Sequence record: MT884006.2
DNA: 64,000 bases
Source of the DNA: Escherichia phage vb_EcoM_bov9_1
Reading direction: 5' to 3' (one strand)
Shown here in pieces: positions 3,034-63,992 of the stretch. The notes under the pieces were generated by a model that was not told where the DNA came from, did no database searches, and was given only the letters and a program-made list of their open reading frames with translations. The translations under genes were made by a program, and so were the position numbers. The number at the start of each line of letters is the position of its first letter. Position 1 is the stretch's first letter.

Positions 3034-3090
3034 AGTATTTCCTTAGGTTGGTATAATTAGATAATATCACGTTTCTAATAGATTGTAAAC

Positions 3091-3426: not shown

Positions 3427-3485
3427 AATGTTTTCCTCATGTTATTGATAGGCTCATAATATCTCAATCATGAGCCTATGTAAAC

Positions 3486-3792: not shown

Positions 3793-3822
3793 ATAGTACC
3801 ATGGAAGAACAGGGATGTAAAC
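3793..3822 (-). promoter_or_regulatory. T4-type early promoter (GTTTAC -35, 18 bp spacer, TGGTACTAT extended -10)
   Basis: Minus-strand reading GTTTACA-N18-TGGTACTAT about 30 nt upstream of ATG at 3761. Confidence 0.55.
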
Positions 3823-7755: not shown

Positions 7756-7785
7756 ATAGTATCACTACTAAAACCCTATGTAAAC
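7756..7785 (-). promoter_or_regulatory. T4-type early promoter (GTTTAC -35, 18 bp spacer, TGATACTAT extended -10)
   Basis: Minus-strand reading GTTTACA-N18-TGATACTAT about 30 nt upstream of ATG at 7727. Confidence 0.55.
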
Positions 7786-52594: not shown

Positions 52595-53689
52595 ATGGCA
52601 ATTGTTAAAGAAATAACTGCTGATTTAATTAAAAAGTCCGGTGAGAAAATTTCAGCCGGACAGAGTACTAAATCAGAAGTAGGAACTAAAACATACACTG
52701 CCCAGTTTCCAACTGGGCGTGCTAGTGGTAATGACACTACAGGGGACTTCCAGGTAACAGATCTATATAAGAATGGATTATTATTTACTGCATACAATAT
52801 GTCATCTAGGGATTCTGGAAGTCTTAGATCGATGAGATCTAACTACTCTTCTTCATCTTCGAGTATTTTACGTACAGCAAGAAACACTATTAGTAGTACA
52901 GTATCAAAACTATCAAATGGATTAATATCAAATAATAATTCAGGAACAATAAGTAAATCTCCTATCGCAAACATTCTTTTACCGAGATCTAAATCTGATG
53001 TTGATACATCATCACATAGATTTAATGATGTTCAAGAAAGCCTTATTAGTAGAGGCGGAGGTACTGCTACTGGAGTGCTAAGTAATATTGCTTCAACCGC
53101 AGTATTTGGGGCGTTGGAAAGTATAACACAAGGTATAATGGCTGATAATAATGAACAGATTTATACGACAGCCAGAAGTATGTATGGTGGTGCTGAAAAT
53201 AGAACTAAAGTGTTTACATGGGATTTGACTCCACGTTCAACGGAAGATTTGATGGCTATTATTAATATCTATCAATATTTTAACTATTTTTCTTATGGTG
53301 AAACGGGTAAATCTCAATATGCTGCTGAAATAAAGGGGTATTTAGATGATTGGTATCGTTCTACGTTAATTGAACCTTTATCTCCGGAAGACGCAGCTAA
53401 AAATAAAACACTATTTGAGAAAATGACATCGAGTTTAACTAACGTTCTAGTGGTTTCAAACCCGACAATTTGGATGGTGAAAAACTTTGGTGCAACATCT
53501 AAGTTTGATGGAAAAACGGAAATATTTGGCCCATGCCAAATACAGAGCATCAGATTTGATAAAACACCCAATGGTAACTTTAACGGATTAGCTATTGCTC
53601 CAAACCTCCCTAGTACATTTACTCTCGAGATTACTATGAGAGAAATTATCACGTTAAACCGTGCTTCTTTATATGCGGGGACTTTTTAA
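52595..53689 (+). CDS. 48: gp48 baseplate-tail tube junction protein
   Basis: 364 aa ORF in conserved order. Confidence 0.9.
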   Translation: MAIVKEITADLIKKSGEKISAGQSTKSEVGTKTYTAQFPTGRASGNDTTGDFQVTDLYKNGLLFTAYNMSSRDSGSLRSMRSNYSSSSSSILRTARNTISSTVSKLSNGLISNNNSGTISKSPIANILLPRSKSDVDTSSHRFNDVQESLISRGGGTATGVLSNIASTAVFGALESITQGIMADNNEQIYTTARSMYGGAENRTKVFTWDLTPRSTEDLMAIINIYQYFNYFSYGETGKSQYAAEIKGYLDDWYRSTLIEPLSPEDAAKNKTLFEKMTSSLTNVLVVSNPTIWMVKNFGATSKFDGKTEIFGPCQIQSIRFDKTPNGNFNGLAIAPNLPSTFTLEITMREIITLNRASLYAGTF

Positions 53690-54654
53690 TGTATTCTTTA
53701 GAGGAATTTAATAATCAAGCAATAAACGCAGATTTCCAACGTAATAATATGTTTAGCTGCGTTTTTGCAACAACTCCATCAACTAAAAGCTCTTCGTTGA
53801 TAAGTTCAATTAGCAACTTTTCTTATAATAACTTGGGCCTAAATTCAGATTGGTTAGGATTAACTCAAGGCGATATTAATCAGGGAATTACCACGCTAAT
53901 TACAGCTGGCACACAAAAACTGATAAGAAAATCAGGTGTTAGTAAATATCTTATTGGTGCCATGAGTCAACGTACAGTTCAAAGTTTATTAGGCTCATTT
54001 ACAGTTGGTACATATTTAATTGACTTCTTTAACATGGCATATAACTCATCTGGATTGATGATATACTCTGTAAAAATGCCAGAGAATAGATTATCCTATG
54101 AAACTGACTGGAACTATAATTCTCCTAATATTCGTATAACTGGGAGAGAATTAGACCCTTTGGTTATTTCATTTAGAATGGATTCAGAAGCTTGTAACTA
54201 TCGTGCAATGCAAGACTGGGTTAACTCTGTTCAAGACCCAGTAACTGGATTGCGTGCTTTGCCGCAAGATGTCGAGGCAGATATTCAGGTTAATCTTCAT
54301 TCTCGCAATGGATTACCTCATACTGCGGTGATGTTCACCGGATGCATTCCAATATCAGTGAGCGCTCCTGAGTTATCATATGATGGAGATAACCAAATAA
54401 CTACATTTGATGTTACTTTTGCGTACAGAGTGATGCAGGCTGGAGCAGTTGATAGGCAAGCTGCGCTTGAATGGCTTGAATCTGCTGCTATAAATGGTAT
54501 TCAAAGCGTTCTCGGAAATAGTGGAGGTGTTACTGGACTATCTAATTCGCTTTCACGACTCAGTAGATTAGGGGGAACTGCAGGAAGCATTTCAAACATT
54601 AATACTATGACAGGAATTGTCAATTCGCAGAGTAAAATATTAGGAGCAATATAA
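53689..54654 (+). CDS. 54: gp54 baseplate-tail tube initiator
   Basis: 321 aa ORF in conserved order. Confidence 0.9.
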   Translation: MYSLEEFNNQAINADFQRNNMFSCVFATTPSTKSSSLISSISNFSYNNLGLNSDWLGLTQGDINQGITTLITAGTQKLIRKSGVSKYLIGAMSQRTVQSLLGSFTVGTYLIDFFNMAYNSSGLMIYSVKMPENRLSYETDWNYNSPNIRITGRELDPLVISFRMDSEACNYRAMQDWVNSVQDPVTGLRALPQDVEADIQVNLHSRNGLPHTAVMFTGCIPISVSAPELSYDGDNQITTFDVTFAYRVMQAGAVDRQAALEWLESAAINGIQSVLGNSGGVTGLSNSLSRLSRLGGTAGSISNINTMTGIVNSQSKILGAI

Positions 54655-54658
54655 CAAT

Positions 54659-54690
54659 GGGGACCTTTCGGTCCCCATATTTTTATTTAC
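54659..54690 (+). terminator. Intrinsic terminator after gene 54
   Basis: GGGGACC-TTTC-GGTCCCC hairpin followed by ATATTTTTATTT. Confidence 0.65.
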
Positions 54691-54973
54691 GGAATGAAAT
54701 GAAAGCAGAAACTGAAGCAACTAAACTGTCTTCAATATAAACTTCAATTTTTACCGGAGCTTCTGACTCAAATTTACCTGTTACTACACCCTGAAAAATG
54801 CTTTCAGTCTGTTCTGGCTTTGAAAAATTTTCAGAAGGGAAAATTCCGAACTTTTTATCTGTTCCAAAAATTTTAATAAATTCATCGTAAACTGCTTCAT
54901 TAAAAGCGTTATCAGCAGGAATAACGCCTTCAACTACAAGTTCTTGACCTAAAAAGCGCAAAGAAGATTTCAT
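54683..54973 (-). CDS. Hypothetical early protein
   Basis: 96 aa ORF with its own early-type promoter, between late genes 54 and the alt paralogue. Confidence 0.5.
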   Translation of the reverse strand: MKSSLRFLGQELVVEGVIPADNAFNEAVYDEFIKIFGTDKKFGIFPSENFSKPEQTESIFQGVVTGKFESEAPVKIEVYIEDSLVASVSAFISFRK

Positions 54974-55004
54974 TTTGTGTTCCTCATGTTATGTCAGTAA
55001 GACT

Positions 55005-55034
55005 ACTATAACACAACATAAGGAACTTGTAAAC
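55005..55034 (-). promoter_or_regulatory. T4-type early promoter (GTTTAC -35, 18 bp spacer, TGTTATAGT extended -10)
   Basis: Minus-strand reading GTTTAC-N18-TGTTATAGT about 30 nt upstream of ATG at 54973; -35 overlaps the alt paralogue stop codon. Confidence 0.55.
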
Positions 55035-57091
55035 TACATTTTGAACTTTTTAGACATTCCGTTGATGTTAACCAAAGAAGCTAAGATTTGAGAAACTTCG
55101 TTTTCCTCTTCTTTTGATTCTTCTACAAGGAATTGATTAAATCCAGCCATTGGACGAACTTCACCAGTTTCCATCAGATGGTCGCCATCATATACTGATT
55201 CTTCTAATTGTTCAGAAGGAGGAACGATTGTACCTTCGATTAGATACTTGTTATAAGCAGTTTCTTTCATCATGTACGTACTTACTTTATTAATCTTCAG
55301 TAAAATTCCACGCGGCAAAATAACTTCAGCTTCGGATGGAAATCCTGATAAATGACCTGGAACGATAACTTTAACTCGTTCAGCTCCTTTAATTACCATA
55401 CCTACATTAGTTTCAGCGTCTTCATTCGCATATGTAGAATGACTACCCATATGCATTAAATCTTCAGCATCAACTGAACCTTCTCCTTCACCAGAAAATA
55501 CTGCTCCGGAATCATCTAAGGCCATATAATTTTTACCATATTCACCGAAGATATTTGGCTTGAGTGAAGTAGATACAAAGTTCTTGAAATAGAACATTTT
55601 ATTTTCTATATTATGACGTAAAGTTTTAAAGGTAACTTCTTGCCCACGATAAAGAGTAGTTCCTGGAGGAAGAACTGAACCTTTAGAAAATGCAGAATCC
55701 AGCGTCTCAATATGTTTAATAGCTCGTTCCATATATTCTTCACGGGTAGAATCAGGTTTACCTAGAAGGAACGAGTTCATTTCAACATATGAATCTGCGC
55801 AATAATCTTCAATTACATCAGACTCAGCCTGAGTTAATCCTTTTGGAGTTACTTCAGTGCTTGCATATTCATATGCCTGAGCAGCAGATTCATCAATTAA
55901 TTTATAAATTCCATTCATTACAAATTGAATAATAGCTGTCTTTTCATCTGGTGTAGCTTTAGAACCTTTAACTAAATCATTGACAATTTTCTTAATAACA
56001 TCAAAGCTATTAGAAATATTAATGTCAGCAAGATCGCTTAAAATTTTATCAGTTTTATAATCAAAGAATTCTTTATTCTTTAAATATTCTTGAGAACCTT
56101 GATATGTTATATCGCTCTGCAGCTTGATAGATGGATCGCGTAAACGTGCATGGGCCAATGCAATATGATTTCGGAAGCTTTCGAGTTCATAATCACTAGA
56201 TTTAAAACGAGAAGCACTTCTCATACCACCGATAGCTCCTTTGCTAAAGTTTGAACCAACCTGAATAACGCCAGAGTTCATTGGTCCTTCTGCTTTATAT
56301 ACCGGAACTTTAGATTCAAACTCTTGATATTTCTTAGCAGCGAAGCTATCACCCTGAAGTGAAGCATCAACAGTAGAATATTGAGCTTGTGCTGCTAATC
56401 GACGACTAATTTTAGTTTTCTGAATAACAGCTTGATCCGTGCGCTTATCATTTTCTAAAGCAATAGAAGCAGCAACAGCAACAGCTTTAGGAACAGCATT
56501 ACCTGTTTTAACGTCTACATAAACATCACCAACCTTTGATTCAACTTTTGTGAATAACTCGGTTGAAATAGGAGGTACACCTGGAATGTCTTCTAAATTG
56601 GCATTTTTACGGTAAACCATAATATATGCGTACTTTTTATCATAATCCCAGATTTCCTTTAAAAGAACATATCGACCTGCTCCTTTAGTACGTACTAAAC
56701 GGTCAGCAATAACTTGCATTTGCCGAGCAGCGCCATTTGTTTTACTTTTTAGTACGCGGAATAAGCATGCATCAATTTTATACTGTTTCATTGTTTGAAG
56801 AGCAGTATCAAAAACAGCATTAATGACGCCAATTGGATTTCCACCCAAGTTTTTAAGCTTAACTAATGATAGTTTCTCATTAACACCTATCATTACGATA
56901 TGCATCATTTTGTCGCCTGGCTTAACGTTTTTATTCGTATCACCGCCAGAGGTGTATGTACAAAATCTAAATCCAGGAAGCACGCTTTCTTCACCTGCTT
57001 GAATAGCAAAAATTTGAGGTATTTTATGCTTAGGATTTAAGTTAACAACCGGCGCCGAAGCGCCGTCAAATAATTCTGTAATAAGTTCCAT
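55034..57091 (-). CDS. Alt-family ADP-ribosyltransferase, paralogue 2
   Basis: 685 aa; N-terminal about 230 aa highly similar to the adjacent alt (MELITELFD...), diverged middle region, C-terminal ART motifs LYR, FVSTSL and SEAEVILPRG. Confidence 0.8.
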   Translation of the reverse strand: MELITELFDGASAPVVNLNPKHKIPQIFAIQAGEESVLPGFRFCTYTSGGDTNKNVKPGDKMMHIVMIGVNEKLSLVKLKNLGGNPIGVINAVFDTALQTMKQYKIDACLFRVLKSKTNGAARQMQVIADRLVRTKGAGRYVLLKEIWDYDKKYAYIMVYRKNANLEDIPGVPPISTELFTKVESKVGDVYVDVKTGNAVPKAVAVAASIALENDKRTDQAVIQKTKISRRLAAQAQYSTVDASLQGDSFAAKKYQEFESKVPVYKAEGPMNSGVIQVGSNFSKGAIGGMRSASRFKSSDYELESFRNHIALAHARLRDPSIKLQSDITYQGSQEYLKNKEFFDYKTDKILSDLADINISNSFDVIKKIVNDLVKGSKATPDEKTAIIQFVMNGIYKLIDESAAQAYEYASTEVTPKGLTQAESDVIEDYCADSYVEMNSFLLGKPDSTREEYMERAIKHIETLDSAFSKGSVLPPGTTLYRGQEVTFKTLRHNIENKMFYFKNFVSTSLKPNIFGEYGKNYMALDDSGAVFSGEGEGSVDAEDLMHMGSHSTYANEDAETNVGMVIKGAERVKVIVPGHLSGFPSEAEVILPRGILLKINKVSTYMMKETAYNKYLIEGTIVPPSEQLEESVYDGDHLMETGEVRPMAGFNQFLVEESKEEENEVSQILASLVNINGMSKKFKM

Positions 57092-57094
57092 GAT

Positions 57095-59188
57095 TTATCC
57101 TTGAACGAACTTGTAAGGCATGTTTGTAATATCTATGCAAGACGCAATAATTCCAAGAGATGATTCTACTTTCTGTTTAATATTTGATGAAACAAATGAT
57201 GCAAAGTCAACTCTGTCTTCTATTTCAATATCACCTGTCATTGCAGCCAATTCACCAGTTTCCATTAAATGGTCTCCATCATAGATTACCGATTCGGTGA
57301 GCTCTTCCGTGGTCATAACTTCAGCTTGAATGAGTTTTGTATTATTAGATGTTGTTCCGTCATTATTAGAAGCATCGGTTATTTTATTAACTTTGACCAT
57401 CAATCCACGCGGTAGAATAACTTCAGCTTCTGTTGCTATTCCGAGACTTCCTGGATATACAACATTAACTTTATGAGCTCCATCAATTGCCCATCCTATT
57501 TGAACTTTAACATATTCAGGATTTTCTTTATACGCTCTTATTTCGTTTGGATTAATAGTTATTCCTTCTTCATTTTTATCAACTGTTAATTCATTGCGAG
57601 CTTCTGGTTCTAAAAGACCAATACCAGCATGTGTGATTCCAAAACGTCCAAAAATGATAGGAGTTAAAGAAGTAGATACAAAATTTCTGAAGTAGAACAC
57701 TTTATTTTTAACTAACGCTTCATATATAGGAGCAGTCATACTTTGAGCACGATAAACTGTAATGCCTTCTGGTATACGGTCACCATTTTCAAAAGCTGAA
57801 TCTAAGTTATTTATAGCAGATTCAATTTCTTTTTCACTCATTACATCGTATCGTTCTGGATTGTAACGACCTAAAAGAAGATTATTGATGTCAGTATATC
57901 CTGATCCACAATACTCTCTAATGCCGCGCTTTTGCGATGGAGTATATTTAGAACCATCACGTGCAATGGTAATATCAATCATTGGACCTGCACCAATTCC
58001 AGAAAAGCTATAAATCATTCGTTTGAGGAATTTAGTTTTTGCTGCGTTCCAGGAATTTTTAGTTATTTCTTCCCAGACTTCATCTGGCTGCCCTTTACGA
58101 GTTTTATTATGTTTATCAAGCCAATTATCTTTATATTCTTCAAATAATTGATTAACAGCTGCTGCGTATTTCTCTAAACATTTTATTGAAGTAGTTGGTT
58201 CATTTTTAATCGCATTAAGAATTACATCTTTAATTTTTTCAGAAACTTCATTAACCTCACTTTTTAAAAAGAATTTATAGTCATAGTGAAGTTCATCTGC
58301 GGTTCCTTCGGCAATAATTTTTGCTGCCTTAGTTTTAGAAGCTAATGAATTAATTCCAAGCTTCATTTCTTCTGCTTCGGGAATTAAAGGAGCTGTAGCA
58401 GGTTTATTGAAATTAGCTGCGGTAGATTCATATTTCTGGAATAATTCGCTTTCAAATCTAGAAGATTCTAATGACTGACTTTGTGCAATTGCTCTACGGG
58501 AAATTTTAACTTTAACGATAACAGCTTGGTCAGAGCGTTTATCATTTTCTTGTGCAATAGATGCTGCAATTGCCTCATTTTTAGTTACTTGAGCTCCAGT
58601 ATCTTTATTGATATAAACATCGCCGACTTTCGATTCAACCTTAGTAAAGAGCTCGGTACTAATTTCAGGAACTCCTGGAATGTCTTCTAGTGATACATTT
58701 TTGCGATGTATAAGAATATATGCGTACTTTTTATCATAATCCCAGAGTTCCTTAAGAAGGACGTATCTGCCACCTGAACGACTACGGATAAGTCTATCAG
58801 CAATAACTTGAATTTGTCGAGCTTGACCAGCAGTTTTAGACTTAAGAATACGAAGCATACAGGCATCAATTTTATACTGACGCATCGTCTGCATTGCAAC
58901 AGTAAAAACTGAATTGATGTAATTAATTGGGCTTGGACCGAGACCTTTTAATTTAGCAATTGAACCTTTAGCAGTTAATGTAAAAGGAACAATATGCATC
59001 ATTTTATCGCCCATTTTTAAATCGCGATTAGTATCACCTCCAGATGTATAGGTACATAAACGAAAGCCTGGTTGTTCAATTGCATCATCAACATGAACTG
59101 AAAAAATTTGTGGTATTTTCTTCTTTGGATTTAAGTTTGTAATCGGAAGAGTAGTATCTTCGTCAAATAATTCTGTAATAAGTTCCAT
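57095..59188 (-). CDS. alt: Alt ADP-ribosyltransferase (packaged, injected)
   Basis: 697 aa matching T4 Alt at N- and C-termini; ART motifs VYR, FVSTSL and EAEVILPRG; late promoter upstream. Confidence 0.9.
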   Translation of the reverse strand: MELITELFDEDTTLPITNLNPKKKIPQIFSVHVDDAIEQPGFRLCTYTSGGDTNRDLKMGDKMMHIVPFTLTAKGSIAKLKGLGPSPINYINSVFTVAMQTMRQYKIDACMLRILKSKTAGQARQIQVIADRLIRSRSGGRYVLLKELWDYDKKYAYILIHRKNVSLEDIPGVPEISTELFTKVESKVGDVYINKDTGAQVTKNEAIAASIAQENDKRSDQAVIVKVKISRRAIAQSQSLESSRFESELFQKYESTAANFNKPATAPLIPEAEEMKLGINSLASKTKAAKIIAEGTADELHYDYKFFLKSEVNEVSEKIKDVILNAIKNEPTTSIKCLEKYAAAVNQLFEEYKDNWLDKHNKTRKGQPDEVWEEITKNSWNAAKTKFLKRMIYSFSGIGAGPMIDITIARDGSKYTPSQKRGIREYCGSGYTDINNLLLGRYNPERYDVMSEKEIESAINNLDSAFENGDRIPEGITVYRAQSMTAPIYEALVKNKVFYFRNFVSTSLTPIIFGRFGITHAGIGLLEPEARNELTVDKNEEGITINPNEIRAYKENPEYVKVQIGWAIDGAHKVNVVYPGSLGIATEAEVILPRGLMVKVNKITDASNNDGTTSNNTKLIQAEVMTTEELTESVIYDGDHLMETGELAAMTGDIEIEDRVDFASFVSSNIKQKVESSLGIIASCIDITNMPYKFVQG

Positions 59189-59207: not shown

Positions 59208-59215
59208 ATTCTATT
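59208..59215 (-). promoter_or_regulatory. Late promoter TATAAATA (minus strand) for alt
   Basis: Plus TATTTATA equals minus TATAAATA, 20 nt upstream of ATG at 59188, with GAGAGGA SD between. Confidence 0.65.
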
Positions 59216-59244
59216 TATAAAATTAAAGGCCCGAAGGCCTTTAA

Positions 59245-63962: not shown

Positions 63963-63992
63963 ATACTATCACAAAGGAACCATACTGTAAAC
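63963..63992 (-). promoter_or_regulatory. T4-type early promoter (GTTTAC -35, 18 bp spacer, TGATAGTAT extended -10)
   Basis: Minus-strand reading GTTTACA-N18-TGATAGTAT about 30 nt upstream of ATG at 63935. Confidence 0.55.

Follow-up and report, generated by a model that had tools for sequence, protein, structure and literature searches.

The window, i.e., the whole stretch of 64,000 nucleotides from Escherichia phage vb_EcoM_bov9_1 (sequence record MT884006.2) that was analysed here, carries a small reading frame on the minus strand between late gene 54 and two genes for Alt-like ADP-ribosyltransferases. The features of this region are listed below in order of position, with the basis of each call in brackets; alt.-3, alt and the second alt paralogue are read leftward and gene 54 is read rightward.

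53689 to 54654, plus strand: late gene 54, baseplate tail-tube initiator, convergent with alt.-3, stop codon at 54652-54654 (context)
54657 to 54678, both strands: bidirectional hairpin common to alt.-3 and gene 54, ATGGGGACC-GAAA-GGTCCCCAT on the alt.-3 strand (scan, folding)
54683 to 54973, minus strand: alt.-3 coding sequence, 96 aa, ATG start, stop codon included (ORF list)
54981 to 54985, minus strand: Shine-Dalgarno sequence GAGGA, 7 nt 5' of the ATG, in the conserved CATGAGGA block (read from sequence)
54998, minus strand: predicted transcription start, an A 7 nt past the -10 hexamer, giving a leader of about 25 nt (inferred from usual sigma-70 spacing)
55005 to 55013, minus strand: extended -10 element TGT-TATAGT, with TGn at 55013-55011 and the hexamer at 55010-55005 (promoter scan)
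55029 to 55034, minus strand: -35 element GTTTAC, or TTTACA in the sigma-70 register (sequence and promoter scan)
55034 to 57091, minus strand: second full-length Alt-like ADP-ribosyltransferase (alt paralogue), 685 aa, directly upstream of alt.-3 (context)
55037 to 55056, minus strand: A-rich, UP-element-like stretch CTAAAAAGTTCAAAATG, at about -38 to -57, within the last codons of the alt paralogue (read from sequence)
57095 to 59188, minus strand: alt, ADP-ribosyltransferase, 697 aa (context)

The 96 aa reading frame described in the initial annotation is thus found in the ORF list at the coordinates given, and its placement between gene 54 and an Alt pair was confirmed, with two full-length alt paralogues upstream. 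The window is from a T2/T4-type Tequatrovirus; the 501 bases around the gene match Escherichia phage vb_EcoM_bov10K1 at 100% identity and T2, T6 and many other phages at 98-99%. The predicted product has a mass of 10.7 kDa, a pI of 4.7 and a net charge of about -5. It matches the Pfam profile DUF5498 (PF17602) with 213.2 bits (cut-off 27) over residues 1-96 of the 96-position profile, as well as PHROG 1739 (E = 2e-44), both of which are families of unknown function. The initial annotation had stated that the protein has no recognisable motif; this is right only in part, as the protein is a full-length member of these two families. It is identical to T4 Alt.-3 (NP_049808; UniProt P39493) at 95 of 96 residues, the sole difference being S89A, and the T2 and T4 records label the corresponding small ORF alt.-3, "conserved hypothetical protein". 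We identify the gene as alt.-3 because of the full-length DUF5498 and PHROG 1739 matches, the near identity to the T4 protein and the synteny with T2 and T4. T4 alt.-3 sits in the same slot, flanked by alt and gene 54, and shares its promoter elements, ribosome-binding site and hairpin with the gene of the window; taking identity and expression architecture together, it is very probable that the finding is this known gene. It does not represent a discovery: alt.-3 is a gene known from T4 annotation for decades, with its own Pfam family and with transcriptomic and proteomic data that place it in the early class.

The two full-length Alt-like genes of the window lie in tandem (55034-59188) with 3 nt between them. 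T2 and T6 likewise carry a full-length second alt paralogue upstream of alt.-3, whereas T4 has one alt gene and only the decayed remnants alt.-1 and alt.-2. The Pfam ART domain matches the downstream Alt copy of the window more weakly than the upstream copy (73 bits vs. 130 bits).

Expression signals and timing of alt.-3

On the minus strand, the gap between the alt paralogue and alt.-3 reads TAG-TTTAC-AAGTTCCTTATGTTGTGT-TATAGT-AGTCTTACTGACATAACAT-GAGGA-ACACAAA-ATG. Base 55034 is both the G of GTTTAC and the final base of the TAG stop codon of the alt paralogue (55036..55034), so that the -35 element does overlap this stop codon, as the initial annotation had claimed. The spacer from GTTTAC to TATAGT is 18 nt (55028..55011), or 17 nt in the TTTACA register, and the T-G of the extended -10 element is at -15/-14 (55013-55012). 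The promoter had initially been written as GTTTAC-N18-TGTTATAGT; the elements are present as described, and only this notation needed correction, as N18 reaches TATAGT and N15 would reach TGTTATAGT. Within the A-rich stretch, A-tracts were seen by eye at about -53..-49 and -44..-41, overlapping the alt coding sequence; T4 early promoters have been described as being of the UP/-35/TGn/-10 type (PMC2988021), with which a putative UP element here would be in line. No genome-wide map of T4 start sites was found in the literature searched, and a start near 54998 is a prediction.

In a promoter scan of positions 52-60 kb, TTTACA-17-TATAGT matched the sigma-70 consensus at 10 of 12 positions and carried the TG in addition, which makes it the joint best site of the scan; TG was found at only three sites in this interval, among which the alt.-3 promoter was the lone site with 10/12 matches. 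Overall, the generic sigma-70 scan showed no enrichment (29 sites observed vs. 30.5 expected). Generic sigma-70-like matches thus occur at chance level in this AT-rich DNA, as would be expected if the promoter-like site were incidental and alt.-3 were expressed mainly by read-through through alt, and there is indeed no terminator between the alt paralogue and alt.-3. The more specific T4-type pattern GTTTAC-N18-TAnnnT, on the other hand, was found six times in the window, all on the minus strand, as compared to 0.79 expected matches (an approx. 7-fold enrichment on one strand only); none of 100 shuffled sequences reached six matches. All six matches read GTTTACA and have a TG-type extended -10 element. 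The five sites other than that of alt.-3 (GTTTACA-N17-TAnnnT at 3061-3090, 3456-3485, 3793-3822, 7756-7785 and 63963-63992, minus strand) presumably represent further early promoters of the T4 type.

Published kinetic data for T4 also argue against expression of alt.-3 mainly by read-through. Time-resolved dual RNA-seq and proteomics classed T4 alt.-3 as early at both the RNA and the protein level, alt.-1 and alt.-2 as middle and alt as late (PMC9697503, Table S2). As alt.-3 peaks before the same-strand genes just upstream of it, a promoter of its own is needed, and we regard read-through as the main source of its expression as very improbable. Late alt transcripts probably do run through alt.-3 as well, since the intervening sequence holds no terminator. 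The early expression proposed in the initial annotation is therefore borne out for the T4 orthologue, which differs by one residue and has the same promoter elements. Of the further claim, that an early unit sits inside a late block, the early part stands; as to its position, the unit lies at the end of a minus-strand block, at a convergent junction.

A middle or late promoter for alt.-3 was considered and rejected, as neither the late motif TATAAATA nor a MotA box was found between the stop codon of the alt paralogue and the ATG of alt.-3 in the window, and as no middle promoter is listed for T4 between 115,371 and 127,234 (PMC2988021). The late-promoter motif TATAAATA was found upstream of alt (59212-59219, minus strand), where it starts at 59219, i.e., 31 nt before the alt start codon (59188), which fits the classification of alt as a late gene. 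A second copy of the motif lies within alt (57808-57815, minus strand), and none precedes the second alt paralogue or alt.-3. Rfam searches of the region yielded chance-level matches only, far under the gathering scores, and a reading as structured RNA was dropped.

The hairpin at the junction with gene 54

The hairpin is placed between the stop codons of gene 54 and alt.-3 (the latter at 54683-54685), three bases past the former and four bases past the latter, and has a 9 bp stem with 6 GC pairs and a 4-nt loop. It was scored as terminator-like on both strands, in agreement with the initial proposal of a terminator common to the two genes, with folding energies of -19.1 kcal/mol (z = -3.5) on the plus strand and -20.7 kcal/mol (z = -4.2) on the minus strand. 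The U-tract on the gene 54 strand (ATTTTTATTT) is clean. The tract on the alt.-3 strand (TGTTATATTG) is interrupted and weaker, and passes the 5-of-8 rule of the scan; most other genera have a clean T-run after the hairpin on the alt.-3 strand. Given this weak U-tract, the efficiency of termination in the alt.-3 direction is uncertain.

These elements fit a simple scheme of expression, the logic of which is either shown or well supported. Host sigma-70 RNA polymerase would fire the strong T4-type promoter immediately after DNA entry, the leader of about 25 nt with its good GAGGA ribosome-binding site would allow rapid synthesis, and the hairpin would both end the alt.-3 unit and shield it from the convergent late transcription of gene 54.

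The hairpin differs among T4-like records in two respects. On the alt.-3 strand, its loop (54666-54669 in the window) reads GAAA in the window, T2 and loci L013 and L015 of our comparison, whereas it reads TTTC in T4 and loci L014, L016 and L017, a pattern suggestive of a flip of the palindromic hairpin among nearly identical Tequatroviruses. Moreover, in the T4 reference sequence (NC_000866 / AF158101, 2003; L002 4716-4745) the hairpin reads ATGGACC..GGTCCCC and is two G shorter than in the window (54657-54685), T2 and a recent T4 assembly (OZ209057; L038 438-470), where it reads GGGGACC..GGTCCCC. The published escape products of Alt.-3 (117 and 110 aa; see below) are obtained from the longer version only. 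In NC_000866, the shorter form is probably due to a compression error at this GC-rich site or to a difference between strains.

Conservation and distribution of alt.-3

A tblastn search found the alt.-3 protein in 836 phage records, each match covering at least 80% of the protein. The initial annotation had held that absence or disruption of the ORF in most close relatives, with no phenotype on deletion, would speak against it; the ORF is intact in all 836 records carrying alt.-3. T2, T4 and eight divergent relatives (representing Dhakavirus, Mosigvirus, Marfavirus, Kanagawavirus, Karamvirus, Gelderlandvirus, Kagamiyamavirus and an unclassified Citrobacter phage) all have alt, alt.-3 and convergent gene 54 in this order. 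We aligned 32 loci from several genera, i.e., the flanks of 11 phages and 21 further loci from IMG/VR. GTTTAC, the exact 18-nt spacer and a TAnnnT hexamer were present in all 32 loci, as were the GAGGA core (within the longer CATGAGGA block in most) and a hairpin after the alt.-3 stop codon, the stem sequence of which differed by lineage. GTTTAC is invariant among these loci, while free divergence is seen in the spacer sequence and in the codons for the Alt C-terminus. A more divergent member occupies the same slot in a Klebsiella phage (hhalign probability 94%), with a promoter spacer of 17 nt; this protein (L034 4191-4469) has 92 aa and ends in GCIA rather than FRK.

The dN/dS ratio of alt.-3 was 0.03 in the comparison with T4 and 0.12 in the comparison with another Tequatrovirus; between genera, with dS saturated, it was 0.24-0.57. 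By these ratios, alt.-3 is under purifying selection. Nine residues are invariant in an alignment of 30 sequences (E11, E15, F24, F50, G66, E71, F91, F94 and R95), all of which are present in the window protein, and the C-terminal motif F-x-x-F-R-K, which the window protein also carries, is conserved across the family. The occurrence in 836 phage records, the low dN/dS and the detection of the protein early in T4 infection together indicate that alt.-3 is a real gene. The family consists throughout of small acidic proteins (pI 4.3-5.2). In Kanagawavirus members (L008 3501-3830, L027 and L028), the protein has a 13-residue acidic insertion in the last beta-hairpin and a length of 109 aa.

A profile search against 1.84 billion representatives yielded approx. 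19 genuine small proteins, all of the same kind, and by these searches the alt.-3 family is very small, with all of its members in T4-like phages that infect enterobacteria. Five long matches (398-1,924 aa, with many short matching stretches) were judged to be composition artefacts, as these are large proteins of secreted or surface type, at least some of them visibly repetitive.

As alt.-3 is found directly downstream of alt in every locus that has alt.-3, across many genera, Alt.-3 might be regarded as a dedicated partner of Alt, i.e., as an early-made inhibitor, antidote or specificity factor for the Alt that is co-injected with the DNA. Small cognate inhibitors are common for ADP-ribosyltransferase toxins, and early synthesis of Alt.-3 would suit the switching off of injected enzyme. 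The distribution data weaken this reading, however. Alt occurs in 1,221 phage records as compared to 836 for alt.-3, so that the two do not strictly co-occur, and an Acinetobacter Lazarusvirus, Tulanevirus IME13 and Krischvirus W115 have alt without an alt.-3-like ORF. Conversely, alt.-3 is intact in Salmonella phage Melville, in which alt is frameshifted. Moreover, the whole region is syntenic in T4-like phages and adjacency therefore constitutes weak evidence. We thus consider it unlikely that Alt.-3 serves as a partner of Alt. In Melville (L010 1333-3440), the alt frameshift has been confirmed by the depositors through resequencing, and alt.-3 keeps both its promoter and its hairpin.

Two further observations concern the surroundings of alt. 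In the non-Tequatrovirus genera examined, a palindrome, CAC(A/C)N-GGA-(A/T)GTG, lies within the -35/-10 spacer of the alt.-3 promoter (sites at L004 3454, L005 3451, L006 3451, L007 1288 and 3452, L009 3453, L011 3454, L021 2449 and L034 4142); it is absent in Kanagawavirus, the window and T4, and Gelderlandvirus has only a short version. The arms of the palindrome vary by lineage without losing their complementarity, and the palindrome itself is displaced by as much as 4 nt between loci. Citrobacter phage Ursula has it in a second place as well, behind the stop codon of the first alt copy, a site that lacks a promoter. The palindrome thus seems to be a feature of the alt 3' end, as an RNA hairpin or a site for protein binding, and not of the promoter. 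In Enterobacter phage IME523, the counterpart of T4 alt.1 upstream of alt (L008 1082-1267) is annotated as "GnsA/GnsB toxin".

The Alt.-3 protein and its candidate role

The AlphaFold model of the alt.-3 product, built from a shallow alignment, has a pLDDT of 96 and predicts a single-domain alpha/beta fold with the order strand-strand-helix-strand-helix-strand-strand. Comparison of the model with solved structures gave no significant match, searches with the NCBIfam, PADLOC and PDB sequence profiles found nothing, and no characterised protein and no defence or anti-defence family showed significant similarity to Alt.-3 in sequence or fold. Alt.-3 is of value as a conserved early gene of T-even phages with a confidently predicted fold that has no solved relative.

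Experimental data on the gene are available from T4. Phage T4 lacking alt.-3 still forms plaques (PMC11618068), which supports the "accessory" part of the initial reading; its host-takeover part is putative. Toxicity of the protein on expression, on the other hand, which had been put forward as a check, was not seen with T4 Alt.-3, as its induction did not reduce the viability of E. coli (10.1101/2024.02.24.581662). In Mosigvirus AV110, 45 early proteins were screened for toxicity and six (gp94, 135, 204, 208, 214 and 263) were toxic; the AV110 homologue of alt.-3, which lies approx. 25.7 kb into the record, is probably not among these six.

A deletion mutant that forms plaques, for which no phenotype was reported (PMC11618068), might suggest that the alt.-3 unit matters mainly as DNA or RNA, i.e., as an insulator and terminator at a convergent junction, and that the protein is functionless; the hairpin does serve both strands. 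Against this stand the strong purifying selection on amino acids, with the nine invariant residues and the conserved C-terminus, the high confidence of a fold predicted from a shallow alignment, and the detection of Alt.-3 protein in T4-infected cells (PMC9697503). In addition, Tulanevirus IME13 handles the same junction without the ORF. A role of the unit mainly as nucleic acid therefore appears exceedingly improbable.

The most specific clue to a function of the protein comes from T4 mutants that escape the CmdTAC defence system, which were selected by Vassallo et al. (Nature 2024; PMC11618068; preprint 10.1101/2024.02.24.581662). In every replicate, escape was due to C-terminally extended Alt.-3 of 110 or 117 aa, and alt.-3 was the only T4 gene in which escape was found (PMC11618068). 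The 117 aa form is sufficient by itself to rescue CmdTA toxicity and to protect the antitoxin CmdA from ClpP-dependent loss (PMC11618068; 10.1101/2024.02.24.581662), whereas wild-type Alt.-3 does neither (10.1101/2024.02.24.581662). T4 without alt.-3 was still restricted by CmdTAC and gave rise to no further escapers (PMC11618068), and the body of Alt.-3 is thus needed for escape, as deletion of the gene gives none. That escape was found in alt.-3 only, and requires this body, suggests that Alt.-3 may already be positioned near ClpP-dependent proteolysis or antitoxin-like substrates, in which case its conserved C-terminus would be the critical end.

Our tentative reading, drawn by analogy, is that Alt.-3 might be a stoichiometric early binder of a component of host proteolysis or defence, i.e., that soon after infection it would form a one-to-one complex with a protein of the host or of a defence system. 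This reading is based on the protein being small, acidic, single-domain, non-toxic and dispensable, with no enzyme-like homology, and on the restriction of its family to phages of enterobacteria. PinA (an inhibitor of Lon), Arn (an inhibitor of McrBC), AsiA (a binder of sigma-70) and Emp (of Mosigvirus AV110) are likewise short, dispensable, early and driven by a strong early promoter, and the one-to-one binding mode proposed for Alt.-3 is like theirs; the resemblance is in the way of working and does not represent a family relationship. AsiA and Emp differ from wild-type Alt.-3 in that induction of the latter gave no loss of viability. Alternatively, the conserved Glu and Arg residues (E11, E15, E71, R6 and R95) could point to a small enzyme or a ligand binder.

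For Alt.-3 as an early binder, the best candidate pathway would be ClpP-dependent proteolysis or antitoxin stability, and the conserved C-terminal strand ending in F-x-x-F-R-K might contribute to the interface or serve to switch specificity. If the free C-terminus sets target specificity, this would explain how a single mutation at the end of the gene redirects Alt.-3 against CmdTAC. It is more doubtful whether wild-type Alt.-3 naturally modulates ClpP-dependent proteolysis or the stability of antitoxins of the toxin-antitoxin type, as a counter-defence protein with an orphan fold; as the wild-type protein neither rescues CmdTA toxicity nor stabilises CmdA, the link to Clp and antitoxins may be purely a new property of the mutant tails. 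If wild-type Alt.-3 does act on proteolysis or antitoxin stability, it would represent a new kind of phage counter-defence protein.

The extended T4 variants share the same protein body, and the window encodes the wild-type 96 aa form. In the window, products of exactly the two lengths reported for T4 would arise from a change of the alt.-3 stop codon (117 aa, with the tail KYGDRKVPIVILLLIFYSAN) and from a 1-nt deletion close to the 3' end (110 aa); the two tails are unrelated in sequence. As the stop codons that end both extended forms are present, the one-mutation route by which T4 escapes CmdTAC is also open to the T2-like phage of the window.
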